DNA of 43,007 nucleotides from Nemertoderma westbladi (lineage: Eukaryota > Animalia > Xenacoelomorpha), in NCBI GenBank assembly GCA_032718475.1, contig JAUCBJ010004978.1, forward strand, positions 1 to 43,007, given 5' to 3'. Positions 5,191 through 43,007 of this stretch are shown here, one piece after another. How positions within the stretch are numbered: the first letter of the stretch is position 1; every line of letters begins with the position of its first letter. Made by a program: the position numbers and the translations under genes. Under the pieces are notes generated by a model. That model was not told the origin of the DNA, did no database searches, and worked only from the letters and a program-made list of their open reading frames with translations.

Positions 5191-6771
5191 TGTTCGCGGT
5201 ATTTCAACTTTCCATAACGCGAGTTGAATATTTTTGTATTTTATTAAAATTGATTATTCCGATATTACTACTGGGTACGGGACCATGGGTTTTGGGCACA
5301 TTCTATAAACTGGGGGCGATTTATGGGCGAACTTTGGGGCAACTTACAGGGTACGGGAATAATTTCATAGTTATAAGGGCCAGGGGGGGATGGAAAATTC
5401 AAGCAGTATTCAGGTTAGCCTGAGTACTATTAGGCCCTGGCCAACTTCCTGCTGCCTGTAGGGGTGGATTTGGTAATGCGCCAGGCCTAAAGGACAAGGA
5501 CTGCCCTTAGCGGTCCCTGGCCAACAGCAGTTATTACGAGACTGAAAAGAACTCGGAACGCTGACTGCTTGTGTCAGGGATTTGCGACGGGAAACGACAG
5601 CCCTTAGTAGCCAAGCCGTTCTGGTTCTCGATGATCGAACCCTTCGGTGTTCGTGAGGGGTGGAACGGACACGCGAACGGGCGGCCGACTAACGACTGCC
5701 CCCTGAGCTAAGCCGTACTGGTTCTCGATGACCGATCCCTTCGGGGTTCGCGAGGGGTGGGACGGACATGCGAAAGGGCTGGCCACAGGACGGGTTTGAC
5801 GAGGACTGCCCTTAGCGGTCTCTGGTCAACGGCAGCTATTACGAGACTGAAAAGAACTCGGAACGCTGACTGCTTGTACCGGGGATCTGCGACGGGAATC
5901 GACGACAGACCCCTTAGCCAAGCCGTACTGGTTCTCAATGATCGTTCCCTTCGGGGTTCGTGAGGGGTGGGACGGACACGCGACGGGGTCGAAAGACAAA
6001 GGACTAGACCCTACTGGCCTACCGACTGTTCGGAGCAGTTTCTCGGCTGCCGAAGCGACTACGAGCCTGAAAGGGACTCGGAAAGCCTAGGTGGGTGGGT
6101 TTCTGCGATGAACCGACGGACCCCTAGCCAAGCCGTTCTGGTTCTCGATGATCGAACCCTTCGGGGTTCGTGAGGGGTGGAACGGACACGCGAACGGGTC
6201 CACCGACACGACAGACTCCTAGCCAAGCCATACTGGTTCTCGATGACCGATCCCTTCGGGGTTCGAGAGGGGCGGTACGGATACGCGACAGAGTCCACCG
6301 ACTGGACCGACCCTTAGCTAAGCCGTGCTGGTTCTCGATGATCGTTCCCTTCGGGGTTCGTGAGGGGTGGAACGGACACGCGACAGGGTCGACCGACACC
6401 GACACTACGGCACTAAGACCAGGACCAAGGGAAAAATCTGGGGAACATTAGGTAGGCTAAAATCTGAGCGAACAGTGGGTAATTAAATAATATACCGTAG
6501 GGATTTATATTATCGTGTATAATTATTTTGAATATTTGGTGTATATTGATTTGGGGAAGCCCAAAATTATTCTTAATCAGGTTCAACAGAGTTCAGTTAC
6601 ATTAAAGAGTATATCCAACTAATGCAGCTTTTTCTCAACCGCAACCCTGCATCTCAGAAATCATTCCTTCTCCAAAATCAATATCCGGTGACTGGCCGGG
6701 GCTCAGTGGTCTGTAAAGTCACGTCTCCAGCATCGGCGTTTTTCCCCCCTGGTGTTGGGATAACGGCAACA
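5191..6771 (+). repeat. 5' LTR of element A
   Basis: tgttcgcggtatttc...gataacggcaaca; matches 17913-19493 with about 10 substitutions and 2 single-base indels counted by eye. Confidence 0.97.
5498..6391 (+). ncRNA. LTR-internal array of structured RNA hairpins (6 k-turn/UUCG units and 3 loop-E/GAAA units); repeated at about 18220-19113
   Basis: Repeated units with pairable arms, cUUCGg and GAAA tetraloops, GAU-bulge/tandem G.A k-turn signature, and substitutions that mostly preserve pairing. Confidence 0.7.
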
Positions 6772-6979
6772 AAATTAAGAATAATTACGGTCAACTTCAA
6801 CTGGTGGAAGTTGAGAATCCTTCAATACTCTTCAAAACTCTCTACGTGCTTGCCAGCACCCACTACGAGGAAACTCTGGTATTTGAGTTGAGACGAAGTC
6901 GTGGTTTAATTAATCAACAAACTCGATCTAACCAACTCGTAGTCGGCAGATCACATATTTGGAGAGTTGTTAACAGGGA

Positions 6980-7171
6980 ATGGAAGTATCGATCACACCC
7001 ATTGATATAATCCAAGTTGAGCCAGGAATCTGGCACGTCGAAGTTGAAGTACAAGGAACGAACGTCGGACGATTCAGGATTACCGTTCGGGTGGTCCAAG
7101 CTGAGTACAATACCTACGAGGAACTGTTTTATGACATCGTGTATCTAGCTATCGACGAGGCGTTACAATGA
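6980..7171 (+). CDS. Short upstream ORF (63 aa) overlapping the gag start (ATGA)
   Basis: ATG at 6980; its TGA (7169-7171) overlaps the gag ATG (7168-7170); sequence looks protein-like but no family is recognised. Confidence 0.35.
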   Translation: MEVSITPIDIIQVEPGIWHVEVEVQGTNVGRFRITVRVVQAEYNTYEELFYDIVYLAIDEALQ

Positions 7172-10100
7172 CGACAAATAACGTATCCGATACCGACGAG
7201 ATGGATCACCACACAGACTCGGAAGCCGACGAGGTACCAAACGTCAAGAACATGACCCGTCGGCTAGGGGCTCTCAAAGGCGGAGTAACCCGAGCGTATC
7301 AACGGATGGAGAAACAACTCAAGGGAGTCAAAACCCCCCTCAATGAGGTACAAACTCAGCTTCAAAGTATCCGAAATATCCTACAGCGGTACGAAAGAAT
7401 GATACAGGCGTACCAAGAGCTCGTTCCCTCCACTGATCAGGAAAACTACCCCAAGTTGGAAGAACACGTTGTACATCTAGATGGGTTCCGCAAACAACAC
7501 CGGAGGACCCTCAGCCTTGTGAGAGGCTATGAAGAACAGTATTACAAGAGGGCTGAAAGAACAGACGCGGAATCAGTACGATCCTCCAGCATCAGGACAG
7601 CAGTACATCGAAAGAGAACTGGGTCCGCTAGAAATCAGCACTCCAGCGCTAGGAGCGAGATATCCGGCTCAGCGCGCAGTTCTCAAGGGGCGCCGCCACT
7701 CCGAGACCAACTGCGAGAACGGAAGGCATTAGCCCTCAAAGCTCGGATGGAAGATGAGTATATTCAACTGCAAGCCGAGCAAGATGTATTAGCCGCCGAA
7801 ACACAAAAGCGAGAGGCCGAACAAGTGGCCGAACGGCAGGCCGAACAACGCGAACAGGAGGCCGAACAACATAGACGAGAGGCCGAACAACATAGACGAG
7901 AGGACGAACGGCAGGCCGAACAACGCAAACAGGAGGCCGAACGGCAGGCCGAACAACGCAAACAGGAGGCCGAACGGCAGGCCGAACAACGCAAACAGGA
8001 GGCCGAACAACGCAAACAGTAGGCCGAACGACGCAAACAGGAGGCCGAACAACGCGGACGAGAGGCCGAACGAGAGATCGAACAACGTAAATGGGAAGCA
8101 GAAATGCGTAAACAACACGCCGAGGCCCAAGCAATTCTCATCCACAAAAAGAATGCAGATATTGCAAAACTCGCGGAATACGAAGCCGCACTTATAGAAC
8201 GAGATATTCAACTCTACGAGGACTGGGAAAGGGATATAGATCAGGAATATGAACCAAGCCCGGTACCGGAATTAGAAAAGTCATTTATACCGACAGCGGC
8301 GAAACTTCCGAAACCCGAGATCCCGCCTATCAAACAGTCTACGCTATCGGCACAAGCACCGGTGTTCCATCCCCCACCGGCTACGCTAAAGAATGAGGAA
8401 CATTATTTCCCATCCAACACCACGACAGCGAGTGTACCCAAGTACGAGCCTGAAAAGGACTCGGAACGGGACGCCACTCCCCGATCTAACAACCCATTTA
8501 CATCCACACCACAAACTCGTAGCCGCGTCATTATTAAAACTCCACCTATTATTGATACATCAAGTATGGGAGTGAGTGCCAATAACTATAACCCTCCGAG
8601 TCACTCCGGTTCAGACGACGTCAGCATCATCCGGGCATTGGAGAATCGCCTTGCCATGCCTAAGATGGAGATTCGCACCTTCGAAGGAGATCCCGTCGAT
8701 TACCTCAGATTCAAGAAACGGTTCTTTGCGCAGATCGGATCAACGGACATAGCCGACGCACAGAAATTGGTATATTTATCGCAATACCTGGGTGACAAAC
8801 CACGCAGAATTATTGCATGTTTTGAAGGAGGTTCTCTTGAGGCATACTATGACGCATGGAAAACTCTAGATAAAAGATACGGAAATACTGGAACTATAAT
8901 TAATAAAACTCTAGAGAGACTGATACAGGACGCGGGATCACTAGGGGACCCACAGAACATCCAGGAATTCTCCGACTCTATGAAGGATGCCTACTATACT
9001 CTGAAACCCTTAAATAAGGAGGACCAGGTGAACAACATTCTAAACCTCCGACAGATCGCCCGGAAGTTTCCCGGATGGCTACAAAGTAAGTGGGCTTATA
9101 AATGTGTAGATCTCCGGCGCAGACATCCAGATCGAGATCCTAGCTTCCTTGAAATGTCGGCATTCCTGTACGATATCTCCGAAGCCATGAATGACTCGAT
9201 GTTTTCAAAACAGAGTCTCGCAAAGTTGGACGGAATAGAGAGCAACTCCAGGAGTAAGATAACCCCTCCGAAACCGAGATTCCGCCCCCCACCGGTGAGT
9301 ACGATGGCCATCACCATGGCCGAGGATTCCGACGACGAAGACTACGAGGAACCGACATCCGCCGAGGAATGGGCATGTTATCTCGCGAGTTGGGCACCCG
9401 AAAGGGAAGGCATCACAAATTCCTTGCTCTGTCTCTTCTGTGGGGAGAAACATAAAGTGGAATTCTGCAGAAAGTTTCAGTTCGCCGAACTCGTCCCACG
9501 CTTCGAGGCGATAATGAAACACCGAGGATGCTTCCGGTGTCTTGGAACAGGTCACTATGTTCGGGAGTGCGACCAAAGATCATGCTGTGCTGTCTGTAAC
9601 GACCAACGCCATCACACGCTCCTCCACATCCCCGCGAACTTCGATTTTACTACCCTCCCCTTTCGGATCGAAGCCAGGCGAAGAGGAGAAACAAACCACG
9701 TCTTCAAAGGAACCCGGACAACCCAACGGAGAGAAACCAACCCGTTTAAAATCTCCACCGATACACCACAAGTAACAAATATTTCGGCCACGATTAATCT
9801 TATAAATCGCCGCTACATGGTCTTCGCAAAGGTAATCCCAGTAAGGATCCAAGGAGTCGGCAAATCTTTGACGACACTCGCGTTCCTCGATAACGGGTCC
9901 GACGGAACCATCATCGACCGGGATTTCCTCGAGCAACTCGGCCTAGAATATGAACCTTGTAAACGGCCCATACAAACCATCACCGATAACAGAGAGGTAG
10001 AGTCCGGGGAGGTGCAACTCCAGATGGAAGGAGTGATGAAGGGCTACGAAACGGTTAAGTTAACCATCAAGAACGCCTTGGTACACACAGACCTCCGGGT

Positions 10101-13100
10101 GCGGTTCCGACAATCAGCCGAGTATGCCCCCCTCATACAATTGGACCGAGACGATGTAGACCTGAGGTGTCCGCAGTTGGACGTAAACCGCATCACCCTA
10201 CTGATTGGACTTGATACACCGGAACTACACATCCCCACCGGAGATATCGCCCGATCTATAAAACAGGATGATGGATTTTATGCTGAACGAACAATAATGG
10301 GATGGACACTCTGCGGCATTAAGGAGGAAACTACTGACACCTATACCTACCTTCCCAAATGTCAGATTAAAGAGAATGCAACCTCTGTGGGTTATTGCTC
10401 AGCTTCGGATCTTGACAAGGATTTGTTTCTGGAAACCGAGAAAACCCAACGAGAGATGACGAAATATTTTAATTTGGAGACCCAGGAGTTCGCGGAAAAG
10501 GACGAAAACCCATCCGAAGAGGACCAATATTGTATGGACATTCTCGACCAGGCCACGTTTAAAGACGGACACTGGTGTTCACCTATGTTATGGAAGGACC
10601 CAAACAAACCAATGGCAAACAACGCCAGCATGGCACTTAGGCGACTTAAAGGGATTCTACGCCGGCTGAATGACCAACCCGAGATAAAGGAGAAATATAA
10701 TACCGTAATCCAAGGATATCTCGATGATGGATTAGCAGAAATGGTACCACGGAATGAACTGCAAGGTGGTAAAAGAACATATTATCTCCCAACCCACTAT
10801 GTAGTAGAAGCCCGCAAAGGTGGGAAAATCCGAGTGGTAAATGATGCTGCCGCTATGTACCAGGGCGAATCCCTAAACAGTCAGCTTTACACGGGACCCA
10901 ACATATATAGTACACTCATCGGGGTATTGATCAGGTTCAGGGAAAACCGGGTAGCATTCACCTGTGACATCAAGGCCATGTTTCATCAAGTTCGTACGTT
11001 ACCAAGAGACTCGGACTGTCTACGTATCCTATGGACGGATAAAACGCTAACTCAACAGGAGATTAGCCAACTCACGATAAAGGACGTAGACGTAATGCGT
11101 ATGGTCGTCAGGATCTTCGGCGCTAAGGACTCGCCGGTAGCATGCAGTGACATGCTAAAGAGGACGGCAACTATGTGCGAAAACGAGTTCCCTCCAACCG
11201 TCATAGAAACCATTCGACGATGCTTCTACGTGGACGACGGATGCGCCGGCGCGGATAATGTGGATGAGGCATATCGGCTAGCAATGGGGATGGTAGAATG
11301 TCTAAAGAAAGGAGGGTTTCCGCTCGTGAAGTTCAGATCCCACGACAAAACACTTATGGAAAAGTTTCCGGAGGACATCCGGCTGGAAAATAACAAAATG
11401 TATTCGGAGGATGTGGAACATCGTGTACTCGGGATTGAATGGGACATAGAATCAGACGAATTCATCTTCAAATATAAACCCCTACCCAAGCCTATGACAA
11501 AAAGGGGATGTTTGTCGATAAAAAGCGCCATCTTCGACCCACTAAATTTCATATCTCCAGTAACCTTGGCCGGAATGAACCTGATTAAGGAAATGTGGAT
11601 AGAAGGACTGGGATGGGACGAAGAGCTCCCCCCACACCTCAGCGTCAAATGGAGAAAATGGACAGAGCAGCTCGAACACCTACATCTTATGCGGATACCT
11701 AGACCGCTCTTCCTCGATAAACTACCCACCGATATCTTCAAGCTCCACACCTTTTCGGATGCTTCGAATACCGGAATCGGCGTAGTCACCTTCTTACGGA
11801 GACTAAGTAACGATGGAAATGGCGATACAAGCTTCTTATTCTCCAAAGCAAAGACAGTATCCGGGGAATTCGTAGCAACGATTCCGAGACTCGAGCTACA
11901 AGCTGCAGTTTGGGCAGTAAGACAGAATCGCATGGTCATGCGGAATCTACGGATCCCCATAGAATCTCAACACTTCTGGGTCGATTCGAGTATAGTTCTC
12001 TATTATCTCCACTCTCCATCACGGCGTCACACCACGTTTGTTGCAAACCAAGCCACGGAGATTAAACAGTGTACCGGCCGAGAACAGTGGCATCACGTGA
12101 ACGGGAAGGAAAACCCAGTGGACTTATCAAGCCGAGGCGCCACCCCAAAACAACTCGGTAAAAATAAACTCTGGCTTACAGGCCCGGAATTCCTACGGCA
12201 GCCACAATTAACATGGAGTACCCGATTCGACCCCGAACTCGATAGCGGAAAATACTCCGAGGACGATAAAGAGATCCGTAAAGTCCATCGAAGCAACGCG
12301 GTGGAAATTTATAGTTGTCTGACTGAGCCTGCAAAGGACTCGGGCAGGCACTATAACGTCGCGACGATCACTCAACTAGCGGCGTCTCTACATCGGTTGA
12401 TCGAGCGAACTTCATCAATGAGACGGCTCGTCCAACACGTTATAACCCTTCGTAACTTCCTACGGTGGAAAAACAACAAACCGATAGTTCAACGGAATAT
12501 ACAAGAACTCATTATCGCGGAGAAGTGTATTGTTAGATATATCCAGAGAGAAAGTTTCCCCGATGAATGGGAACAACTTAGTGCGGGCAAAACATTGAAA
12601 CCGGACAGCCCAGTCTACCAACTGAGACCAATGATGGGAAAGGACGGACTGATCCGACTGAATACCCGGATGGCAAACGCACCGGTCGAATATGAGGTTA
12701 AATACCCGGCGCTTCTGCCCGGAATGTCGACACTAGCTAAGCTATTAATTCTACAATGTCACGAGGACAACCACCACGCTGGACAGAATTGGATTATAGC
12801 TAATATAAGACAAAAATATTGGATCACCCACATCCAGCCACTAATCCGGAAAGTGTTGAAACGTTGCTTCACCTGCAGACGTTACCTAGCACCACCAATC
12901 ACCCAAAAGATGGCCGACCTACCAGCCACCCGTCTACAAGCAGATTCCCCACCGTTCTACGTCACCGGAGTGGACTGTTTCGGACCGTTTACGGTCATCG
13001 AACGACGATCCAACATCAAATGCTGGGGAGCCATCTTCACCTGCCTAAGGTCTAGGGCAATTTACCTAGATATCGTGGTAAATCTGACACAACACGCATT

Positions 13101-13932
13101 CATCAACGCTCTGCGTCGGTTCGTGGCGAACAACGGGACATGCCGCCACATGTATTCCGATAATGGTACAAACTTTGTGGGAGGAGAAAGAGAACTTAGA
13201 GAGGCGATCGAGGGATGGTTTACCGATAACACCGCATCCCAAGTCTGGAAGGAACACCAGATACAGTGGCACTTCCAGACCCCCTTAGCACCCCATACGA
13301 GCGGGGTATGGGAGAAACTGATCGACCTAGTGAAACGATCCATGCGCGTCGCTCTAGGCGATACCCGGGTAACCCATGACACCCTCCGCACAACATTCTG
13401 CGAGATCACGGCTACCCTGAACAACCGACCCATTGTCCCTATCCGCGACGACCCCACAGACCTGGAGCCCCTCACTCCTAACCACATACTGGGGAGACCC
13501 AAAACCCACGTTCTCCCGGAAACCATGTTCCCGGATCCCAACGAGATCGCGAAACATACAAACTGGAAAAAGGCCCAAGCGTTGGCAGCGCATTGGTGGA
13601 GAATTTGGGCCCAGGAGTACCTCATAACCCTCCGGACCAGGAGGAAATGGAACAACACCTACCGGAACGTCGCAGTTGGCGACATGGTACTAGTTAAAGA
13701 AGATCTCAAAGACCGCGTTCACTGGCCTGTGGCGCGGGTCGTGACCATACACCCAAGCAAAGACGGACTTGCGAGGACTGTGACGATACGAACGGCATCG
13801 GGCCACTACCAACGCCCTATCCAGAAGCTGTGCCTTCTTGAAGGCAATGACAGTGGTGATTCTACGAGAGGTGATAAGTTCCCTACTCAAGATCCTGCTG
13901 CGGACATTGGTGACAATTACAAACCCGTGTAA
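7168..13932 (+). CDS. gag-pol: BEL/Pao Gag-Pol polyprotein with one in-frame TAG at 8020-8022
   Basis: ORFs 7168-8022 and 8104-13932 share a frame. Motifs: gag FEGDPVDYLRF (about 8680); three Cys/His knuckles (9430-9630); protease AFLDNGSD (about 9880); RT DIKAMFHQV and FYVDD (about 11225); RNase H LHTFSDAS, TIPRLEL, FWVDS; integrase HHCC, GVDCFGP, SDNGTNF, GVWEKLI; C-terminal GDMVLV...WPVARV...RPIQKLCLL. Confidence 0.95.
7810..8075 (+). repeat. Coding tandem repeat in gag (21/33-bp units, EAERQAEQRKQ coiled coil)
   Basis: Repeated gaggccgaacaacgcaaacag / gccgaacggcag units. Confidence 0.9.
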
Positions 13933-14210
13933 CCCTTCTCATCATGTTGACAAACTCTTTTTAACTGTGATGTATCGACAACAAATTATGGACCCCCCTT
14001 AAACCAACTGTAACCACGCAATGGTATTTGTGTTTCCTCGTGTGTTATGTGGAGTCCAGCGTCACCCTGCAGATGTTTCGACTGACGCAGGGTCGTTTAT
14101 GCATTGTTTACCCTGATTTTGGTCATCGGGACCAACGATATTGGATTATTGGAAATGGTAAAGATTTGAAGTGGAATTCATTGTATTCATTGCAGTATGT
14201 TATGTTGTCC

Positions 14211-14621
14211 GTTGCGTGCGCAGTTCGGGGCGTAGGCGGTGTAACGAGTCCAGCTGTAGATCCCGGATTGCCGCGCAACACCCCCTCTATCCCGTTATTC
14301 TGGTGGGTCCATGGTGCATCCACATGACTTCGACGATAGAGGGTTTTATGTTTCTCAGTCGCGTTATTCTGGTGGGACCGTTGCGTGGATTTTGGGGCGT
14401 AGGCGGTGTAACGAGTCCAGCTGTAGATCCCAGAATGTTGCGTAATCCCATCCCACATGACTTCGTCGACTGAGCTTTATGTTGTTGGGAGTGTTATTCT
14501 GGTGGGTCCCTGGTGCATCCACGTGACTTCACTCCCAGCGTCGTCATTGTCCGTTACGTGCGCAGTTTGGGGCGTAGGCGGTGTAACGAGTCCAGCTGTA
14601 GATCCCAGATTGCCGCGTAAC
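14211..14621 (+). ncRNA. Triplicated covarying stem-loop downstream of pol
   Basis: Three copies (14211-14279, 14380-14446, 14553-14621) with an invariant 38-nt core and compensatory changes in the enclosing stem. Confidence 0.65.
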
Positions 14622-15176
14622 ACCCCTTCCACGACAAAGATTAACCAAAGAAAATGATTGAATATAGTTGGAAATGATGAAAAGGATCAGACAACTCTAC
14701 TATAAACCTGAATGATGACGCGTATGCTGATGAAAATGTAATGATGCGCACCCTGGTGCTGCGCTTATAACCAATGATGATAGCCGGGGGGCTATAAACC
14801 CAATGATGATGTGGAAATAAATAAATGTGAAATAAATGGTGGAAATAAATGTGTTGAAATATATGTGGAAATAAATGAAATGAGATGGAATAATAATGAA
14901 ATGAAAAAAGACAAAAAAAAGGTATAAAAAAGTCTAAAGAAAAGAATTGAAAAAAAGAAAGGACAAAAAAGTCATAACACTGGTTGGATATTAATGTATA
15001 GTTATAGTAACTGTAAATGCTGAATGTATTAGCAATAAGATGATAGATGCCTATATAGCAATGTTATTAATAAACTGAATTAAATAAAAAACTGAATTAT
15101 TCTGCTATCGCTATAGTTTCAGACTTTCTGGACTTATAATTAACTGATCTAATTTGTAACGGATATAATCGTAAAT

Positions 15177-17750
15177 ATGGACCCAAATCGCCAAATTATC
15201 GGCGAATTACGTAACACGATAGATCTACTGGAATATTCGCAACCTGGATCCCCTGACTTTGATACAAATTGGAGCACCCTGCTAAATGAGAACGTGCGAG
15301 TCGTTAAATTCACCGGGCGAGAGGGACCGGATTCCAAGAATCTACGAGCCCTCCGGTTAGCCGATGCTAGTACGAGACTGAAAAGAACTCGGAACGCAAA
15401 GGCAACCGGAGGGGACGATTCGTCGTTTTGGGAAACGTTCCGGCAGAGCGTTTACAGATCCCAATGTTTGATCTACGACAACGAGGGAAACGCGACGCCC
15501 ACCTCGAAAGCGATTACGTTGGCGAGATGTCAAAGTTTCGTCGACGACAAGAGTACGTACCTCGCCCACTGGGGAAACCTGTCGGAGTGTACGGCGACGC
15601 TTCGAGAGGAACGCATATCGATTATCCAAAACCGCGACGACTACCAGGAAAAGTACGGGGCGAAAGAATACGGTCGATCCTTAGTCGTCGTCCTCGGAAC
15701 CCTGGACGGTTTGGTACTGGTGTGCCGAATATTCCCGACACCCAGACAGGAAGTGCAGGCAGCCGGAGCGATCTGGTTGCTACCTCCGGAAATCCAAAAG
15801 ATCCTCTTCGACTTCGACGTCATTAAAATCGGGTCGGATATCAAGGCGGACGTCCGGAACGACTACGCGAACGCTCCTGCAGGAAGAAACCGACGAGACG
15901 ACCTCAACGCCCTTAGCCATTGCATCGACACTCAAACGCTACTAGCCTGATTACGATTCGCCGAGTTCATGCGAGGATTCCAAGAGGTGAGACCGACGAA
16001 ATCCGGGATCGGCTACCTCGCTGTGCTAAACGGCGGCATCAACTTCAAACCCCAGAAATTCCGGGACTATAATAAAATATATGGTGGATACCCGGGATTA
16101 GAAATAAAGAGCGAGCGAGAGGGTCGATGGAAGGACGTTGATCGGAAGTGGACGATACACCAAAGGTGGGAGAATCCCGATCGACGGAACTACGTTTACG
16201 TCGTTATGGAATGCTACACCGTCGCTAAGTTTATCTGTAAAACTCTCGATAACCTTATTACGGCGGTCCCCCTTTCCTTCGTCGACTACGACTGGAACGA
16301 GGTCATACACCACGCGTTCAAAGCGGTCGAGAACATTGCACCGGGAGAGACTAAACGCTCGCCGTTATCGATTCCTGGGACGAGAGCGGACCTTACGACA
16401 TCCCTACGATTACCGAACTTCTCGGTGCAGAGGAGCCTCTGATCTCTTCGGAAGGGGAAGAGATATGGCTAAACGAGGGTGTTCTACTCTCCACCCCGAA
16501 GCGACAACTCGAGCCGGTGGCCGCTTACCAACCGGCCGCAAACGGGTTGCCCCCACCGTACCAACTACGGAAGCAGGCGTTTCCTCACCACTCGGCTTCG
16601 GTAGCCCTGCGAGGGAGTTGGTTACTACCTTCGCGTTAAACGACTTCGGCGTTACGTGCCAAAGGTTATCCCCGTATCCTTTCCCGGGTGGCGAAGACTG
16701 GTCGTCGGAGATTCCGAGTACCAGCAATCAACAGACCCGCTCAGCGATATTGGTCGAGAAGGGCCCCAGCGCTGCGCCGACTCCCGACGATCTCCTCGGA
16801 ATCCCTCCGTCGAAAACCCCGGCACCTCTTTGCCGACAAGCGGTGGCTACTACACCCTCCGTTCCTCAGGATCCCATGCGACTAACCCGTTGGTACGCCG
16901 AGCAAACTGAATGGATCCACCGCCAGAGACGGTCGTCCGAGTTGAGACCAGCGGGACACAAAGAAGGAAAAGCCTAGCATTCCGCGGGCTACCGACCACC
17001 GCGAATATTCCGAAGAGTGACCGACGACTCGAATATTACGTCGGCCTCCCGATTCCGATATTCCCCGGTCGAGAGATGCAATTGGAGGTTTGCGGCAACT
17101 GCGGTTCGGAACAGTGCCCACGCGGTAGAAGGAATCGGGTTACCGATTCGTGCCTCCAGCTCATCGGGATACTCTATTGCCCATACTGCGCGACATCGGG
17201 CCACGACGTTTCCGTCTGCCCGATCCTATATAACCTCTGTACCACATGCAGTTTCCGTGGACATTCCTCTAGCCCCCGCTGCTATATCAAATGTCCAACC
17301 AAAGACGTTACCGCTATGGGAAATATGGTCATGTTTGAAACATACGCAAACAGCCACTTAAAGACCAAGGTTCGGAGAAACGCTCGGAATATCGCGCAGG
17401 AGATGGCGTGCGGGTATTTCTCCTTCCCGGAACGCCTCCACACGTCGGCCATGCTACCTTTCCATTACGTGGATCTGCTACTGAGCGCCGGATTATTCGG
17501 TCCATTTGAAGTCATTAGACGATTATACTCGTATAAAGAGGAGTTCGGTGACGGAGATTGGTTCCTAGAGGCACGCAAATCTGAGTTGGAAAGACGAACC
17601 GACATGATCCCTATGCCATCGAAAGGAAGAGCCGCCAGGAGACAAGCCGAAGCGTTACTCACGATGGATGTGGACGCTCCTCTACCAGCCATAGCGATCG
17701 ATGAGAGTCGACGGGCGAAGAGACGAAAGGTGTATCAGAAAAAGAAATAG
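15177..17750 (+). pseudogene. Extra ORF of element A: DnaQ/WRN-like 3'-5' exonuclease-like domain, linker, Cys/His zinc cluster, basic tail (about 860 aa if repaired)
   Basis: LPPEIQKILFDFDVIKIGSDIKADV, CIDTQTL, SGIGYLA and W...YVYVVMECY follow the WRN/RNase D exonuclease motif order; CGNCGSEQC, CPYCATSGHDVSVC and CTTCSFRGH...C; ends RRAKRRKVYQKKK. One TGA (15948) and about 3 inferred frameshifts. Confidence 0.7.
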
Positions 17751-17903
17751 TGGATCGGGATATTCCAGGAACATTTATCGAACATTTATTTATACAAACT
17801 CTAGGCCAAATTAATTAAAACTATGCAATATTAAATTTGGGTTTTTTATATTGGGAATGACCTACGCAAACTCAATCGACCGACAGACTTCACGAAGGTC
17901 ATT

Positions 17904-17911
17904 GGGGGGGA
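17904..17911 (+). promoter_or_regulatory. Polypurine tract (plus-strand primer) of element A
   Basis: ggggggga ending 1 nt before the TG of the 3' LTR. Confidence 0.8.
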
Positions 17912-17912
17912 C

Positions 17913-19493
17913 TGTTCGCGGTATTTCAACTTTCCATAACGCGAGTTGAATATTTTTGTATTTTATTAAAATTGATTATTCCGATATTACTACTGGGTAC
18001 GGGACCATGGGTTTTGGGCACATTCTATAAACTGGGGGCGATTTATGGGCGAACTTTGGGGCAACTTACAGGGTACGGGAATAATTTCATAGTTATAAGG
18101 GCCAGGGGGGGATGGAAAATTCAAGCAGTATTCAGGTTAGCCTGAGTACTATTAGGCCCTGGCCAACCTCCTGCTGCCTGTAGGGGTGGATTTGGTAATG
18201 CGCCAGGCCTAAAGGACAAGGACTGCCCTTAGCAGTCCCTGGCCAACAGCAGTTATTACGAGACTGAAAAGAACTCGGAACGCTGACTGCTTGTGTCAGG
18301 GATTTGCGACGGGAAACGACAGCCCCTTAGTAGCCAAGCCGTTCTGGTTCTCGATGATCGAACCCTTCGAGGTTCGTGAGGGGTGGAACGGACACGCGAA
18401 CGGGCGGCCGACTAACGACTGCCCCCTGAGCTAAGCCGTACTGGTTCTCGATGACCGATCCCTTCGGGGTTCGCGAGGGGTGGGACGGACATGCGAAAGG
18501 GCTGGCCACAGGACGGGTTTGACGAGGACTGCCCTTAGCGGTCTCTGGTCAACGGCAGCTATTACGAGACTGAAAAGAACTCGGAACGCTGACTGCTTGT
18601 ACCGGGGATCTGCGACGGGAATCGACGACAGACCCCTTAGCCAAGCCGTACTGGTTCTCGATGATCGTTCCCTTCGGGGTTCGTGAGAGGTGGGACGGAC
18701 ACGCGACGGGGTCGAAAGACAAAGGACTAGACCCTACTGGCCTACCGACTGTTCGGAGCAGTTTCTCGGCTGCCGAAGCGACTACGAGCCTGAAAGGGAC
18801 TCGGAAAGCCTAGGTGGGTGGGTTTCTGCGATGAACCGACGGACCCCTAGCCAAGCCGTTCTGGTTCTCGATGATCGAACCCTTCGGGTTCGTGAGGGGT
18901 GGAACGGACACGCGAACGGGTCCACCGACACGACAGACTCCTAGCCAAGCCATACTGGTTCTCGATGACCGATCCCTTCGGGGTTCGAGAGGGGCGGTAC
19001 GGATACGCGACAGAGTCCACCGACTGGACCGACCCTTAGCTAAGCCGTGCTGGTTCTCGATGATCGTTCCCTTCGGGGTTCGTGAGGGGTGGAATGGACA
19101 CGCGACAGGGTCGACCGACACCGACACTACAGCACTAAGACCAGGACCAAGGGAAAAATCTGGGGAACATTAGGTAGGCTAAAATCTGAGCGAACAGTGG
19201 GTAATTAAATAATATACCGTAGGGATTTATATTATCGTGTATAATTATTGTGAATATTTGGTGTATATTGATTTGGGGAAGCCCAAAATTATTCTTAATC
19301 AGGTTCAACAGAGTTCAGTTACATTAGAGAGTATATCCAACTAATGCAGCTTTTTCTCAACCGCAACCCTGCATCTCAGAAATCATTCCTTCTCCAAAAT
19401 CAATATCCGGTGACTGGCCGGGGCTCAGTGGTCTGTAAAGTCACGTCTCCAGCATCGGCGTTTTTCCCCCCTGGTGTTGGGATAACGGCAACA
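17913..19493 (+). repeat. 3' LTR of element A
   Basis: Direct repeat of 5191-6771, same length, directly after the PPT. Confidence 0.97.
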
Positions 19494-19718: not shown

Positions 19719-20225
19719 TTTGAGTTCAGTTTCATTATGCCACAGAATCACGATCCTCTCTAAAAGTAACATATCTGATTCTGTCAACCATACCGTTTTC
19801 TTCACAGTCATCGAAGATTGCACTGGAACTTGTCATTTTAATTACATCTGTTAGGCCTAATTCAGTAAAATTACCAAAGAAACGCTAATACCGGTAACTG
19901 AATACTGTAATATATTGCAATACAGCAAAAGTCAGGCAGTTATAACTGTTTAAACAGGGTTGCAAATCTGATGACAAACGCTGGATAAATTATATTTTTT
20001 TTAAATTGTCATTAAATCACAAATATTGAAAAGTAAGATGATAGGTTTAAAGAATTGCCTATAAAATTTTTATACTTTCGTATTGGACCCTAAACTTTTG
20101 CATGCAAGCTCATAATTCAATTATCTTTCGAATATTACACTAATTATATTACTATAATTAATTAATTACAATAATTAATTATATACACTATTATATTACA
20201 CTAAAGTACATGTCTGGCAGTTTTG

Positions 20226-21106
20226 TACGGTGGCTGAAAGCGGCCAAACAATATTAATTAAGCGTTTTTTTTTTTAATTTCAACCCGGGTTGAAAATAAT
20301 ATCAACCCGGGTTGAAAATAATATCAACCCGGGTTGAAAATAATATCAACCCGGGTTGAAAATAATATCAACCCGGGTTGAAAATAATATCAACCCGGGT
20401 TGAAAATAATATCAACCCGGGTTGAAAATAATATCAACCCGGGTTGAAAATAATATCAACCCGGGTTGAAAATAATATCAACCCGGGTTGAAAATAATAT
20501 CAACCCGGGTTGAAAATAATATCAACCCGGGTTGAAAATAATATCAACCCGGGTTGAAAATAATATCAACCCGGGTTGAAAATAATATCAACCCGGGTTG
20601 AAAATAATATCAACCCGGGTTGAAAATAATATCAACCCGGGTTGAAAATAATATCAACCCGGGTTGAAAATAATATCAACCCGGGTTGAAAATACTTGCA
20701 TGTGACCAATGACAATTCGTTCTATGAACTCTTTTGTTGATGAGGTGTGGCGGGAAATATAAATATAATATATATATGTAGGTATCACTCAGCCAATGCA
20801 GCAATGCAATGTCCGACTGTAGGCCTACTGCAAACAACTGGAGTAAACAGAAGTATAGCGATACATATATATTTACATTTATATTTCCCGCCACACCTCA
20901 TCAACAAAGAGTTCATAGAACGAATTGTCATTGGTCATATGCAAGTATTTTCAACCCGGGTTGATATTATTTTCAACCCGGGTTGATATTATTTTCAACC
21001 CGGGTTGATATTATTTTCAACCCGGGTTGATATTATTTTCAACCCGGGTTGAAATTAAAAAAAAAAACGCTTAATTAATATTGTTTGGCCGCTTTCAGCC
21101 ACCGTA
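20226..21106. mobile_element. Non-autonomous foldback DNA transposon, IS3EU-like
   Basis: TACGG...CCGTA termini; long near-perfect TIRs; 6-bp TSD gttttg (20220-20225, 21107-21112), which is single in the uninterrupted opposite arm of the host MITE. TAY..RTA ends with a 6-bp TSD match IS3EU. Confidence 0.75.
20280..20692. repeat. 22-bp tandem array (19 copies) with the 14-bp palindrome TCAACCCGGGTTGA; 5 inverted copies at 20951-21052
   Basis: Identical caacccgggttgaaaataatat units, counted directly. Confidence 0.95.
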
Positions 21107-21999
21107 GTTTTGGTTGGCCATGGGGGGGCAATCATTATGGAACACCCGGTATTGACTACCGTGTTTTGTTTAGTTAGAATAACGTGCCACTATAAACTGC
21201 TCTTTTCCCTTCATTTAAATATTTAACATTGAGTGAGATATTATTTCATGGACTAACTTACTTCCGAGAATGAGGCCGTGAGGATCTACCAGAAAGAATT
21301 TAACTCTAAACTTTGTTGGTTACAGTGGTACGTCATTCTAACCAAAACAATAAACTTAAGTCAATATAATATTTTTATTTTTGAGAATAATCAGCTGCCA
21401 TTTGCGTCAAATTTTCGTCGAACTTCCAGTGTGTAAAAAGTTGTAGGACATTAATTTAATCAGAAATGAATATTCTAGAAACGTTACAGAGGATTTTATC
21501 TTCCATCCCCTTTGCTTCAGTTACATAAATATGTAACTACAATATTGTAACATGTCATCAGTCATTATTATGAATTCCGATATCATCGTAATACAACTAA
21601 GCCAATACATTAATGTGCCTACATGATAAAATTGTGATGACTGTATTTGCCATTCATATCTTCAGTTTCCACGTGGAACAGCCAGTTCAGAAACACGACC
21701 ATCACCATCACTAAGCAACAAGGTTAATTTTTATTTTCTGTTACATGGAAGGCTGAGATAGCACCACATTAACTCTCAAGGTTGAACACTCAATAATTAT
21801 GCAATCCGTTTCTTTAATCCCCCAAGCAGAAGCTTCTCATATCGCTCGGCCCGGGATCAAACCGGGGACTTCCAGCTAGATGCAAAGTTTCCACTGTACC
21901 ATATAGCTATTACAATGCAAACATACAAGATGATTCATAAAATAAAAGGAATCATACATAATTAGTACAATTATTATGTTATTTACAATATAAACTAAC

Positions 22000-26653: not shown

Positions 26654-27900
26654 TGTAAAGTACAGTAGTATACCGCCTACCGGATCCTAGTAATGAAGTA
26701 CGTTACTGTAGAATCCAGCATTGTATACGGGCTCGTACAGTATCTGACAAGAAATCCCAGTCCAGGGTGTCTAAATAAATAGATACTAAGTATACAAACT
26801 ACTACTGGCGAGGAACGGAGCCTGGTGTCTATTCTAATACTTGGACGAATCAAATGCCCAGGCTAACTAGACAAACAGGATGCCCGGCCTCTAACCGGTG
26901 AGGCAGATGTACAGTCTACAGATACAGACCAAACTCACGGGAAAACAATCCCCGCGTAGCGAATCCTAACTATTGCTAATGGACCTAAAATACTGTAAAC
27001 TTGCTGCGCTGTGATTTATATATATGGGTATAATACGAGCTAGTGGGACAACAGAACTAGCGTAAAACAATACTGCCGACAGGAAAATAGCAGTCAAAAG
27101 GGGTGCCTCTACACCTGAGTAAAACAAATACCAAATTTCTCCTCAAATAATAGAATATTCTTACCGTAAGTCTGCAGCTTAGATCTCAAGACGTGTGTGT
27201 GTGTGTGTGTGTGTTAAGATAAAACAATTTTGGTGTATCGCCGTTATACTAGGTTTTGGTGATTTTATCAAAATAACAATGCTGGGTGCTAGCTACTCGA
27301 ATAAGCTAGTCGCACGCTGTAGGCGCAATTCTTATAAACTGACGTCAAAAGGGCTCTCTCCTCCTTCATTCACAACTCAACCGGGCAATTACGGTGTTAG
27401 TAACTACACCCGTGATCGGCACTAATACCAGATTCTGATTGTGAGATAAGGAAATAGGTGTTAATTTACTAGCTAGCTGTAGTAGTAGTGCCGTAGTAGT
27501 AGTAGTAGCTGATCTGGTATATAATTTGATTCTAGAATTTTGTTACTGCGGTGGGCTGCAGTAAATACCTATCAGTACTTTGCAAGGGCGCGGTAGGATG
27601 TTAGTAACCTCCCTTAGCCAAATGTGTTCTGGTAGCAGAAAACTGCCTCTTGCCTGATCAAATACTTTGGAATCAGACAGGTGAGTCAAACTATAAGGCC
27701 TACAGAGCTAACCGGTACTGTACTGTCAGTACTGCAAATCACCAAATTATAAAGCGTGCTATTCACACCTAAGTGCACTTGCGCAAACTGACGAACAGCA
27801 ATAGCTCGCACCTGTAGGAGATACAGGTTGATCCGGGTTTTTCCCTGTCTCAATCTGAGATATTTGATCCTAAATTTTACGGCGTCCCAGGATGGCGTAA
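26654..27900 (-). repeat. LTR-like direct repeat of element B (3' LTR)
   Basis: Colinear with 37002-38200 from tgtaaagt to ggcgtcccagga; many more differences than the LTR pair of element A. Confidence 0.85.
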
Positions 27901-30049: not shown

Positions 30050-30520
30050 TTCTGGTTGATAGTTTAGTGGAAAGTCTGGTAGACAGTCTGGTGAGGCGTC
30101 CGGCGAACAGTCTGGTGAGATGTCTGGTGAAACATATCACGAAACATCCGGCGAAATGTTCTGTCATAAGTCCCATGGAAAGTCTGGCATAGCATCTGGC
30201 AGAGTGTCTGGTCTAAAGTCTGGTGGACAGTCTGATGGAACTAAATGTTCAATGAAATGAACTGGAACGAAGTGTCTGGTGGAAAATTTGGCGAAATTTC
30301 CGGTAGACAATTGGTCAAAAGATCCAAAAAACAATCTGGCAAAGAATCCAGAGAATAATCTGGTGGACAGTCTGGCGAATAATCTGGCAAGATGTTTGGT
30401 GAACAATCTGGTGAACAATCTGCTGAAATCCCCCACGGAACTTCCGGTGAAAGATTTGTTGGAACGTCTGGTCGAATGTCTGGTGAGACATCTGGCGTAA
30501 TGTCTGGTCTATTGTCCAGG
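30050..30520. repeat. Degenerate 12-bp tandem repeat (tctggtgaacaa-like) inside element B
   Basis: 12-nt period; reads PDxx repeats on the minus strand. Confidence 0.8.
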
Positions 30521-30639
30521 TCATTTGATTTTATTCGTCCTTGTTTCCTCTTGACCTTGGTGCTGGCTTTTGCCTTCGACTTGACAACAGTATCAATTTT
30601 TATCTCAGCACCTTCCCGGCACATTCATTCATCCGATGG

Positions 30640-31725
30640 TCATTGTAGGAAGTCAGGTCCTTTAAACCAGAAGGACTTATTGTCCGGTTTACAAAAGTCT
30701 ATGGGTCACATTCCCCATGACACGATGTCAGCTGGGTTCAGTTTCCCTGGGCAGTGACGCCAGTCTTGTTTGAGCGACCGGTCTATTATTTCAGCCTGCC
30801 TGTTGGCCACGAAAGTCTTGAACTGAAACGTTTCATTATTGATGTACCAAAGTATCAACATTGCGTCAGTCCAATACGTGACTTTCAAGTTAGCCTCCAA
30901 TTTGCGCTGAACTAGACTGACGATATCGGTGGATATTGTCCTGGCTTGTAGCTCTCTCCGAGGTACTGTCATATATTTCAAAGGCATTGTTTTGGCCCTT
31001 GAAGTAACGAAAGACACCTCGTAACTGTAGGATGTCACTTGTCGTCTAAGGTATAGAGTAACCCCCAGCCCATCCTTGCTAGCGTCACTAAAGCTGTGAA
31101 GCTCTAGATCCGCAGGAAAGGTGGCCTGTAAAGGAAAGTATACCCTGGGTATTGTATAGTCCTGTAGGAGTGTCAGTTGAGCCTCCCAGTCCCTCCATTG
31201 TTCGGCTGGCTTTTCTGGGATGGGATCTTCCCATTCCAGTCCAGCCTGCCAGATGCTGCGGAGTATAATCCTAGCATGTAGGATCACGGGACTGATGAAA
31301 CACAGTGGGTCATACAAATGACTCATTGTTGATAAGCAGGTCCTGTTGGTGAGAGGTATCGTCTGGTCGTTGGCCCTTACGCGTACCCTAAAGTTGTCGG
31401 TGTTGGGGTCCCAACTTAATCCTAGGACTTTGGTCGTAGGCAGAGGTTCTAGATCTAGATCTAGGTCACCTCTGCTACCATCAGTAGGGTCATATGAGTT
31501 CACTAGTTCGGAGTTATTGGAAGCGAATTTGGTGAGGTGGAATCCGCCCTCAGCGAGACAGTTCTGGAGTTGGTATGCTACGGTTGTAGCACACTCCAGA
31601 GTGTCACAACTCTTGAGGCCATCATCCATGTAAAAATCCCGCTCCACTGTCCGAACTACTTCTGGGTCTAGTTTGTCACGTCGGTCTAATGCTGTCTGTT
31701 TCAGGGCAAAAACTCTTACCTGCAT
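30640..31725 (-). pseudogene. pol: Element B RT C-terminus and RNase H
   Basis: FYMDDG, GGFHLTKFASN, KVLGLSWD, YDPL, LHSFSDAS, TVPRREL, YWTDA, WRHCPGKLNPAD. Confidence 0.93.
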
Positions 31726-32397
31726 TTGGTAAGTTTCTGGCGGAAGATCTAAATTTCAGTCTGAAGTTGCGCATTGTATTGCATATGGGCCGTCTCATCA
31801 TGCAACAGCTGCTGCCGTATTGACTTAAGTCTTTTCAAGACAAGCGGGTAGTTGTTAACAAGCTTGAGCCATGGCACCACAACATCCCAACTTCGTAGTG
31901 GCCATCGTAGTGGTTGCTGGTAGGCTTGCAAGCCTTCCAGTGTCACTAGTCAGCATCGAAACGTTGTGAGGCGGTTTGACAACCTTTTGATCTGTTGGTA
32001 GGCTCGCAAGCCTTCCAAGATCAGCGATCGGTGTCGAAGCCTTGCAGATGGGGTCAACGACCTACGGATGTGTCAGTAGGCTCGCAAGCCTTTCAAGATC
32101 CTCGTTCGTTGAGACATCCACAGCATCAACCCTTTGGTCTTCGGTAGTCGATACAACCTGTTCCGCTGCAAGTAGCTGTAAGTTAGAGGTCCGTGTGGTC
32201 TCGTCCAAGTCTGTTACGTCGGTGTTGGTAGCGACGTAAGACTGTCGTGGTACTGTCTGTACAGTGGGACCACAGGAATGTGAGGGAGAATTGACTAACG
32301 TAGTAGTTAATAGACTACATGTGCTGAAAACGTCGTCCTCCTGGTCACTTACCTCTAGTGAACGCACAGGCGCTCTCGTATACCAACCCATGGGAGT

Positions 32398-37001: not shown

Positions 37002-38200
37002 TGTAAAGTCCAGTAGTATACCACCTACCGGATCCTAGTAACGAAGTACCTTACTGTAGAATTCAGCAGTGTTAACGGGCTCGTACAGTATCTGACAAGA
37101 AATCCCAGTCCAGGGTGTCTAAATAAACAGATACTAAGTACACAAACTACTACTGGCGAGGAACGAAGCCTGGTGTCTATTCTAATACTTGGGCGAATCA
37201 AATGCCCGGGCTAACTAGACAAACAGGATGCCCGGCCTCTAACCAGTGAGGCAGATGTACAGTCTACAGATACAGACCAAACTCACAGGAAAACAATCCC
37301 CGCGTAGCAAATCCTAACTATCGCTAATGGACCTAATATACTGTAAACTTGCCGCGGTGTGATTTATATGGGTATAATACGAGCTAGTGGGTCAACAAAA
37401 CTAGCAGTTAAAATAGCAGTCAAAAGGGGTGCCTCTATGCCTGAGTAAAACAAATACCAAATATCTCCTCAAATAATAGAATATTCTTACTGTAAGTCAG
37501 TAGCTTAGATCTCAAGATGCGTGTGTGTGTGTGTTACTATAAAACAATTTTGGTGTATCCCCGTTATACTAGGTTTTGGTGATTTTATCAAAATAACAAT
37601 ACTACGTAGTACAATATAGTAGCTAGATACTCGAATAAGGTAGTCGCACCCTGTAGGCGCAATACTTACAAACTGACGTCAAAAGGGTTCTCTCCTCCTT
37701 CATTCACAACTCAACCAGGCAATTACGTTGTTAGTGACTAGACCCATGATCAGCACTAATACCAGATTCTGATTGTGGGATAAGGAAATAGGTGTTAATT
37801 TACTACCGTACATGTAGCTGATCTGGTATATAATTTGATTCTAGAATTTTGTTACTGCGGTGGGCTGCAGTAAATACCTATCAGTACGTGGCAAGGGTGC
37901 GGTAGGATGTTAGTAACCTCCCTTAGCCAAACGTGTGCTGGTAGCAGAAAGCTGCCTCTTGCCTGATCAAATAATTTGGAATCAGACAGGTCAGCCAAAC
38001 TATAAGGCCTACAGAGCTAACCGGTACTGTACTGCTAGTATGGCAAATCACCAAATTATAGAGCATGCTATTTGCACCTAGTACTTGCGCATACTGACAT
38101 ACAGCAACAGCTCGCACCTGTAGAAGATACAGGTCGACCCGGTTTTTTCCTGTCTGAATCTGAGGTATTTGGTACTAAATTTTACGGCGTCCCAGGACGG
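37002..38200 (-). repeat. LTR-like direct repeat of element B (5' LTR)
   Basis: Colinear with 26654-27900. Confidence 0.85.
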
Positions 38201-40899: not shown

Positions 40900-43007
40900 T
40901 AATAATTAATAATTAACTTTATTTATTGTAATATAGTGTGTTTATTGAGTATAATTTATTAATCAAATTTCTCTAGGTATTTTTTAAGATAAGGCCTGAA
41001 GGAATATTATTTTAATTCATATGAAAACGAGTTTTTTGATTTAGCATTTTTTATATCGCTAGGGAGGGCATTTCCATATTCTAGGGCCAGTGAATTTTAA
41101 GGATTTCTGGGTGAGGTGTAGTCTTACACGTGGAACGAAAAAGTTTTGTGCAGAATTGATCTGTGTTATATCTGTGGATGGAACTAGTTTGTTCAAATAC
41201 AAAATGCTTTGTAATGCTTTAGTTTTTTTCATTTTTTTAATATCATACATATTTAGCCAAGCTTCAAGTCTTTTTCGAGAGGGAAAATATTTAGGTTTTT
41301 ATAAATTGGGTTAGCATGAGCTTGATAATGGCTGAAAGTTATTGCTCGAACAATTTTATTAACTTTTATTTTCAATTTATCAGTATTTGTTTTGTGTGCG
41401 TTGCCCCAGAGTAGTATTCCGTATAGGATATGTGGATGAACTAGTGCGAAGTAGAGGGTTCTTAACCCTATTAAACCCGGGGGGGAGGAGGTCAATATGA
41501 CCCCCCCCCCCGTGGTTTTTTTATTATAATTCTGAAAAAACGCAGTTGGAAATCTGAAATTTTATGACTTTTCCTAAAAATCTATTGTCTTCTTAGTAGT
41601 GAAAGCCGTTTTCAAAAATATTGGGTAGTTTTCGAGTTATAGCACCATTTTTAACCCTACTTTTGGCACTATTTTCGAGACGTTTTTTGAAAATTACATT
41701 TCATTAAATATTAATTGTAATATCTCTATTTTTGAATTACACCGGTTTTTTGGTGTTAGCAATTCGATGGAATTCATATAAATTGATTTAGAAATTTCAA
41801 ACTTGTTTTTTCAGCGGCTGCCAAATTTTGGTGCCAGCACCAAATTTTGAAATATGTCAATTTTGTAAATTGATTGTTTGAAACTTCTTTTTTACGCAAT
41901 TGGGGTTTTTTGGGGTTCTGGTTTCGAAGAAATATATACGAGTTGCACCAAGCGTATCAAACTTGTATTTTTCAGTGCTGTGTGCAAATTTTGGTGCTAG
42001 CACGAAATTTTGAAAATACATTCAAAAGATAAAATTGCTTGTGACAATTTATTTCTTGCATTTTAGAGGTTTATGGCTGTTCTGAATTCAATGGAATATA
42101 TAATTATCGAACTAGACATATCAAACTTGTATTTTTCGGAAGTGGGTGCAAAATGTGTTGCTAGCACCAAATTTTGAAAACCATCAAATATATCAATTGA
42201 TTGTGTCATCTTGTTTCTTGCGTTATACGGGTTTGTTAGGGTTCTGAATTCAATGGAATCAGTACAAATTTCATAATAAGAGTTTTCAAACTTGTATTTT
42301 TCGCCGGTGGGTGAAAATTGTTGTGCAAGCACCAAATTTTGGAAAATGAGTAAATTGATCAGTAGATAGTATCATCTTGTTTCTTGCGTTATACGGGTTT
42401 ATGAGGATCTTGAATCCGATGGAATCAATAAAAACAGCACTGGACATCGCAAACTTGTACTTTTTGGTGATGGGTAAAATTTGCCAATTTACGCCGAAAA
42501 ATACAAGTAGCAATGATCTGGCATATTTGAAATGTATTCCATTAGAATCAGCGCCCTAGAAATCCTGAAAATGTGAATCTATAGCTTCGTATAAGTGAGT
42601 TAAAAATTTTGTGTTCTAACTGAAAGTGCTGGTTACTTGTGTTTTTCATTTTTTTCCTACGCATAAGGACTAAACAGCCATTAATGGTAATCATAATAAT
42701 TTTGGTGCTGCAATATTACCGCCCCAGTACATTTTTTCGAAAATTTTTTTTTTCGGTCGGATTCAGACTAGTGATACCTACGTACAAACAAAAAATCAGA
42801 CGTTTTCGTTAATATTTGTAGATTTTAGAGGGAGGGGTCAACATGACCCCCCCCACCCCCCCCCCCCCCCCCCCCGGTATTTGTACAGCATTTTATAGCC
42901 CGGTACTAATAGGGTTAAAATGAGCAGAGGTAGAATGTATCTTAATTAATTTTAAAAAATTCCAGTAAGTTTCGAGATTTTTGAGTGTATGTAATTACAA
43001 TGTGTTT
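40900..43007 (-). mobile_element. CR1/L2-like LINE 3' remnant interrupted by a piggyBac-type MITE
   Basis: LRTLYFALVHPHILYGILLWG...NKIVRAI...SLKFTGPRIW; homology continues at 42919-43007 (HSKISKLTGIF) beyond the insertion. Confidence 0.8.
41466..42914. mobile_element. Non-autonomous piggyBac-type element with internal repeats of about 120-170 bp
   Basis: TTAA|CCCTATTA...TAATAGGG|TTAA; subterminal ggtcaaYatgacccc palindromes at both ends; repeated caaacttgtatttt...gcaccaaattttg blocks. Confidence 0.88.

Follow-up and report, generated by a model that had tools for sequence, protein, structure and literature searches.

A 26-base hairpin motif recurring in the LTRs and three ORFs of a Nemertoderma westbladi BEL/Pao retrotransposon, a putative loading site for an element-encoded protein

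The DNA analyzed here is a stretch of 43,007 nucleotides from Nemertoderma westbladi (contig JAUCBJ010004978.1 of assembly GCA_032718475.1), referred to in its whole length as the window. It contains a BEL/Pao long terminal repeat (LTR) retrotransposon, which spans positions 5191–19493 on the + strand, and within this element a 26-base hairpin motif (motif A) occurs nine times, in sense orientation throughout. Three copies lie in each LTR, and one each lies in gag, in pol, and in an extra open reading frame (ORF) that follows pol. Selection acting on an RNA structure is likely at these sites, although no single test was decisive. With a probability of roughly 0.45, the copies would be loading sites for an RNA-binding protein that the element itself encodes; the likeliest candidate is the zinc-knuckle, nuclease-like accessory protein of the extra ORF, ahead of Gag.

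The full motif pattern, which the original prediction had placed in the LTRs, gag, and the extra ORF, was matched at 5533, 5838, 6058, 8441, 15369, 18255, 18561, and 18781 on the + strand. The three 3' LTR copies are thus present as claimed but are not independent, as the two LTRs are near-identical (1572/1583 aligned bases), an identity that also indicates a young insertion. The variant copy in pol, at about 12325, has the expected core, GCAA loop, and bulged A, but in place of the ANUA/GAA internal loop it carries a C-G pair plus one A.G; its proposed closing stem, tgtctg/caggca, exists but is longer than had been described (12309–12356). The 10-bp stem closing the extra-ORF copy was located at 15349–15358/15404–15413. 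Different reading frames had been claimed for the coding copies, and the extra-ORF copy is indeed in another phase, but the copies in gag and pol lie in one and the same codon phase. The internal copies are spaced by 2383, 3879, 3049, and 2886 bases. In the 11,140-base interior of the element the full pattern occurs twice and the core three times, and neither was recovered in any of 2000 dinucleotide shuffles. A covariance model built from six copies scored the nine copies at 35.9–51.2 bits, as expected for sequences that match by construction or as LTR twins, with no other score in the whole window exceeding 13.7 bits.

Every copy caps a longer predicted hairpin; that the LTR copies cap hairpins of 70–90 nucleotides, set in a nine-hairpin array with six kink-turn-consensus units, had been overlooked previously. 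The predicted fold has a GAAA or GCAA loop at its tip, below which come a U-A (or U.G) pair and a C-G pair. Next is a C-G pair with a bulged A in some copies and an A/AA loop in others, followed by the four pairs CGAG/CUCG. Beneath these lie A.G, U.A, a bulged base, and A.A, and a variable mismatch then leads into a G-C-rich stem. The six contexts, all on the + strand, are hairpin A1 (5504–5591; motif 5533–5558; bulged U, A.A/A inner loop, GAAA; folding z-score −4.19), hairpin A2 (5809–5896; motif 5838–5863; z −5.01), hairpin A3 (6035–6106; motif 6058–6083; bulged C; z −1.65), the gag copy (8430–8479; motif 8441–8466; z −2.70), the pol copy (12309–12356; GCAA loop, bulged A, no loop E; z −7.16), and the extra-ORF copy (15349–15413; motif 15369–15394; 10-bp closing stem; z −6.22). 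The change from GAAA to GCAA does preserve a GNRA loop, which is closed by a pair in 6/6 contexts. By sequence, the A-N-U-A opposite G-A-A expected of a loop-E/sarcin-ricin motif is present in five of the six contexts, the pol copy being the exception; the proposed bulged G is limited to two of these five, the gag and extra-ORF copies, with U in A1 and A2 and C in A3. The loop-E geometry and the non-canonical pairs of motif A are model predictions. Viroid C259 presumably occupies the bulged position of loop E. Viroid loop E tolerates the C259U change, which is predicted to be isosteric (PMC5823408). As described in PMC6633198, the sarcin-ricin/loop E motif has the same order of A.A, bulged base, U.A, and A.G that is common to the five contexts, but its bulged base is a G that forms a triple with the U.A pair. 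Motif A differs further in its cap, an extended stem with a bulged A and a GNRA loop.

The case for selection on an RNA structure is drawn jointly from the flanks, the A1/A2 changes, the position of the pol copy, the folding scan, the sister copies, and the strand preference; the nucleotide-level selection proposed originally thus gained support from pairing flanks, pair-keeping variation, the pol insertion, and folding z-scores. Compared with the LTR copies, the coding copies agree at 16–25 of 26 core positions (25/26 between the extra-ORF core and A1/A2) but at only 3–11/20 positions of the outer flanks. These flanks are largely unrelated between coding and LTR copies and still extend the stem. 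When flanks were swapped for controls from the same ORF, none of 358 was as stable for the extra-ORF copy, and only 0.2% of 1004 were for the pol copy. On a fold made from A1 alone, all eight differences between A1 and A2 preserve a pair, one of them being a double change (P 0.018 under a paired-position null and 0.075 under an any-position null). Of 362 windows in a folding scan, 20 had z ≤ −2; all three coding copies are among them, the pol copy being lowest. The pol copy fills an insertion of ∼20 residues in the linker between RNase H and integrase, at a site with 9–20% occupancy in 60 other Pols (60 of the 110 spanning matches). A peptide trace of the motif at this site was seen in none of 120 other BEL/Pao Pols (the best 120 of 1487 matches), with one loose match elsewhere. 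The sense fold was more stable than the antisense fold in 9/9 units tested, with a margin in the extra-ORF copy of just 1.3 kcal.

Sister copies were compared over gag positions 8370–8545 using contigs of four runs (three samples), with variants counted at ≥2%. This gave 18 variant positions, one in the 26-position core of the gag copy and 17 among 85 flank positions. The lone core variant, at 8456, changes Lys to Arg and a U-A pair to U.G, so that the pair is kept, as in A3. In the closing stem, the variant at 8433 replaces U.G by C-G in one of two predicted registers, in which 8436 is then the bulge, and the variant at 8440 is unpaired in the hairpin. Six of the 12 left-hand loose ends listed for the sister contigs start at 8429–8439, the edge of the hairpin, and copies that diverged upstream therefore still align across it. 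The core was thus nearly invariant in sister copies, as had been anticipated, but the suppression of synonymous change was of borderline significance: none of nine third codon positions varied in the core as against 12 of 28 in the flanks (p 0.016 raw), and p rose to 0.056–0.115 once flank variants were held to the deeper cover of the core.

This corrected p value is one of several results that weaken the case for selection on the structure. The gag flank swap was not significant, as 12% of 361 controls were as stable, and covariation in the six-copy alignment was weak, with a single double change that 152 of 500 shuffles also reached. The variant at 8469 would break a pair of the gag hairpin unless its partner, 8438, also changes; an A at 8438 was seen in two loose-end rows and is possibly linked to it. 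The sister test covers the gag copy, the wider comparison comprises 40 of 1117 variant sites, and rare divergent subfamilies may fall under the 2% cut. The invariance of the stems may also reflect recent copying.

We infer that some protein reads motif A, since the outer stems are free but hardly any change is seen in six stem pairs and the two loops, as fits a protein-read site. That the reader would be the element's own protein we infer from the lack of relatives of both the motif and the accessory ORF in the searches run; the position of one copy 190 bases into the extra ORF and the spacing of 2.4–3.9 kb favor the same reading. Element RNA would then carry a self mark every 2.4–3.9 kb, for use in export, protection, or packaging. 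Since both LTRs hold copies, every transcript would bear the mark, which cannot single out full-length RNA; it would separate self from host RNA and not full-length from short RNA. A further point against loading by the element's own protein is that the joint gain of motif and accessory ORF was seen in one lineage only.

The likenesses to Rev/RRE (Rev response element) and boxB drawn in the original prediction are analogies; Rev/RRE and boxB are single elements, and lambda boxB is a pentaloop with an extruded base. Motif A loops have four bases and are closed by U-A or U.G, and identity with boxB was rejected. LTR-borne response elements for element-encoded proteins do exist, such as the Rec response element (RcRE) in U3 (PMC11379458). 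Like the present element, the HERV-K Rec/RcRE and HIV Rev/RRE systems combine RNA structure in an LTR with an extra element-encoded protein, and they suggest a possible role in export of unspliced RNA; the RcRE is, however, a single 433-nucleotide element in U3 (PMC11379458), whereas the 26-nucleotide module here recurs within the LTR and in three ORFs. The putative accessory protein here is nuclease-like with knuckles, unlike Rec and Rev, and its ORF is broken in this copy. In its action, motif A would resemble either such a response element or dispersed packaging signals, with a layout unlike both. Dispersed packaging signals of MS2, hepatitis B virus, and other RNA viruses also comprise several stem-loops with a common recognition motif, coding regions included, but they share a short loop motif rather than 16–26 of 26 bases plus an internal three-dimensional motif (PMC6281560). 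The available text of that source names no LTR retrotransposon among its cases.

The extra ORF (15177–17750, +) looks, by sequence features, like a DEDDy nuclease followed by zinc knuckles. Its front half was called DNA_pol_A_exo1-like by Atlas (0.92; 27/30 matches; the member shares 17–40%), candidate DxE, D, and YxxxE motifs were picked by eye, and two CCHC knuckles lie at 17178 and 17238. The ORF is fragmented in this copy by a stop at 15948–15950 and by frame changes between about 16440 and 16980. For the last frame (16911–17750), Atlas leads below 0.9 include AIR2-like knuckle proteins. The assignment of the partner is weakened by several points: the DEDDy call comes from one Atlas search below the recognition threshold together with the motifs picked by eye; Pfam, PDB, and phmmer searches of the extra ORF gave no match; and a single-sequence structure model was uninformative (predicted local distance difference test score, pLDDT, 33). 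With phmmer, the front half had no relative among longer proteins or among 1.84 billion representatives, proteins of near length or shorter in the larger database being unsearched. In the bdelloid LTR retrotransposons Juno and Vesta, ORF3 after pol is also DEDDy-exonuclease-like (PMC5408684). The present case differs in that the element is BEL/Pao, CCHC knuckles follow, and no phmmer relative was found; an RNA motif is not mentioned in the available text of PMC5408684.

The LTRs hold a second class of hairpin, B, that bears on the alternatives. Each LTR carries three A and six B hairpins, nine in all, arranged as A B B A B A B B B. In the 5' LTR (5191–6771, +, bounded by TG...CA), the B hairpins occupy 5604–6398 (+; starts 5604, 5701, 5911, 6121, 6216, and 6311) and are interleaved with A2 and A3; the 3' LTR (17913–19493, +) has the same array, with B units at 18327–19120 around its three A motifs. 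The array would lie in a long R region, given TATAAA at 5304 and ATTAAA at 6482 and 6601. A B unit comprises a basal UA/GA-type loop, a YAAG/ANAY loop, a kink-turn (K-turn) consensus, and a UUCG loop (z −3.82 for B4). The standard K-turn has a 3-nucleotide bulge followed by G.A and A.G pairs (PMC5061560, PMC4382518), and the consensus (RAU bulge, G.A, A.G, C-G below) was present in 11/11 B copies tabulated, with the 3b.3n position being U.U in four of six units and C.C or C.A in two. One position of the B stem alternates between U-A, A-U, A.G, and G.A, and the base of B1 carries a complete AGUA/GAA loop.

The spacer ahead of the extra ORF is also structured. Three D hairpins (14205–14629, +; starts 14205, 14372, and 14547) share two loops, one a symmetric GUA/GUA loop and the other a terminal loop of 10 bases; between D1 and D3, four paired sites have changed, amounting to two compensatory pairs. 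They are followed by a box C cluster (14670–14810, +) of four RUGAUGA and two CUGA words; 0.71 box C words were expected (P 0.006, for a region picked after they had been sighted). The box C and box D words are ordered C-D'-C'-D, with a weak Rfam match to sR3 (E 0.83), and the cluster could be a small nucleolar RNA (snoRNA)-like decoy. Seven AATAAA words and an A-rich tract at 14816–15083 form a possible internal poly(A) site, which full-length RNA would have to read through.

The main rival explanation, which we consider unlikely, is that host proteins are recruited: motif A would be the site of a host export, localization, or stability factor, and the B K-turns together with the box C words would bind a 15.5K/Snu13-type protein. 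The consistency of the K-turn consensus, the U.U at 3b.3n, and the excess of box C words all argue for it, as do the precedents of constitutive transport elements (CTEs) and the I-factor localization signal (ILS); retroviruses are also known to switch between protein-dependent and constitutive elements (PMC11379458). Egl–BicD reads bent stem-loops with 3'-strand bulges, two of which are needed per RNA, and is used by the I factor (PMC13186709). Its signals resemble motif A as stem-loops within retrotransposon coding sequence that have a 3'-strand bulge and occur more than once per RNA, and the reader protein has an exonuclease-homology domain; they share little sequence, however, and depend on U-A pairs at set places, whereas motif A is sequence-fixed and G-C-rich (PMC13186709). 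The folding program favored another register of B, with a 5-base bulge, which also keeps pairs in 9/11 copies and so competes with the K-turn. Motif A itself has no K-turn, and no known host-factor sequence was matched in Rfam. A combined scheme must be regarded as more speculative still: a response system built within the lineage from rRNA-type blocks, in which a captured DEDDy/zinc-knuckle protein would read a module kept every ∼3 kb despite amino-acid insertions and the LTR K-turns would recruit a 15.5K-type host protein, giving a snoRNP-like protected RNA particle.

It is improbable that the hairpins serve RNA–RNA tertiary contacts, with the six A GNRA loops docking in six receptor-like B loops and so folding or dimerizing the 14-kb RNA. 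The conservation of GNRA in all six contexts would fit such contacts, as would the B loop, which is arranged like the 11-nucleotide GAAA receptor (C2-G10, A4-A5, and A8 in 6/6), and K-turns usually serve tertiary contacts (PMC5061560). The U3.A8 core pair of the receptor is nevertheless found in only 2/6 B units. C stands at receptor position 3 in four of the six, and measured 3C variants lose >4 kcal/mol (limits of 4.2 for 3C9C and 4.13 for 3C7C); C7 is present in 5/6, for which the values are 3.25 for 1G7C against 0.82 for 1G, and 1.6 for 7C9C (PMC10243134). These data come from single and double mutants (PMC10243134), and the B loops carry three to five changes. A canonical 11-nucleotide GAAA receptor in B was rejected on the measured receptor variants (PMC10243134, PMC2275092). 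Classic GAAA-receptor docking is thus disfavored, and plain helical receptors remain a candidate.

We hold it quite improbable that the coding copies are a neutral by-product of template switching or conversion, through which part of the LTR repeat would have landed in tolerant linkers and so far escaped decay. The near-identity of the extra-ORF core with A1/A2 would follow from such copying, the coding copies all lie in linkers or ahead of the predicted nuclease core, and the corrected synonymous test is not significant. Against this, three insertions are all in sense orientation and all bounded to the same motif, unrelated flanks pair, and variation keeps pairs; no B-unit fragment was found in the coding regions, though B is twice as numerous as A per LTR. 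Repeats within LTRs are often enhancers, and the stem sequence is nearly invariant, which would fit a DNA-level enhancer or integration-complex site repeated across LTR and body; the G.U pairs, GNRA and UUCG loops, single orientation, and stronger sense folding point instead to RNA and make a DNA site very improbable. A new self-cleaving or processing ribozyme is scarcely credible, as no Rfam ribozyme was matched at E ≤ 5 and the genomic RNA would not survive cleavage within gag and pol.

The assignment of the element to BEL/Pao follows from Pol domain matches to Peptidase_A17 (E 4e-38), DUF1759, DUF5641, and Integrase_H2C2, and the element has TG...CA LTRs, a purine run preceding the 3' LTR, and a 5-base target duplication that agrees at 4/5 positions. 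Its gag-pol frame (7135–13932, +), with three Gag knuckles at 9430–9627, is broken in this copy by a stop at 8020–8022. Repeats of 21 and 33 bases at gag 7766–8124 encode an EAEQR-rich coiled coil, and the in-frame stop falls inside them. Among the best 120 of 1487 matches, the nearest Pols are ≤42% identical over residues 900–1500, and the named sources are corals, sea urchins, molluscs, fish, and arthropods. Thousands of variant contigs in sequencing runs of one organism align to the element, which therefore belongs to a large family in that organism. No Pol relatives were found in the viral contigs searched.

Elsewhere in the window, a second, decayed Pao element lies on the minus strand at about 28.2–36 kb (Peptidase_A17 E 3e-37 at 30706–31755); it has 12-base repeats at 30050–30530 and no A motif by the covariance model. 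It is flanked by a direct repeat of ∼1.1 kb, 93–95% identical, at 26654–27771 and 37002–38080, possibly its LTRs. A tandem array of a near-palindromic, partly inverted 22-base unit occupies 20187–21145, and a satellite-like unit of ∼165 bases is present in three to four diverged copies at 41882–42434.

Beyond the window, a pattern scan of viral contigs gave no match for either A or B. Metagenome contigs gave 21 matches for the A pattern, of which 19 had 0–1 of three inner pairs and the best scored 20.8 bits under the model; none resembles the element by blastn or tblastn. Prokaryote genomes gave one match (23.6 bits) versus 0.27 expected, and both sets were read as chance. Rfam returned only three weak snoRNA matches, below threshold, and hammerhead and twister-sister-like cores (loop definition from PMC11620745) were absent on either strand. 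Literature searches, with subscription journals and Repbase reports outside their coverage, turned up no BEL/Pao cis signals and no such array or motif in BEL/Pao or other LTR retrotransposons; we found no earlier report for LTR retrotransposons of one hairpin seeded in the LTRs and three ORFs.

To our knowledge, little is known of self-RNA recognition by LTR retrotransposons outside yeast, fly, and mouse. Motif A is short and fixed, and its nine natural copies, of which three overlap protein code, would make it a direct bait for its partner protein. On what the DEDDy extra ORFs of retroelements do, the available text of PMC5408684 gives suggestions only, and motif A would point to a role that can be tested. 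In the LTR array, loop-E, K-turn, and receptor-like elements are each present in several natural variants.

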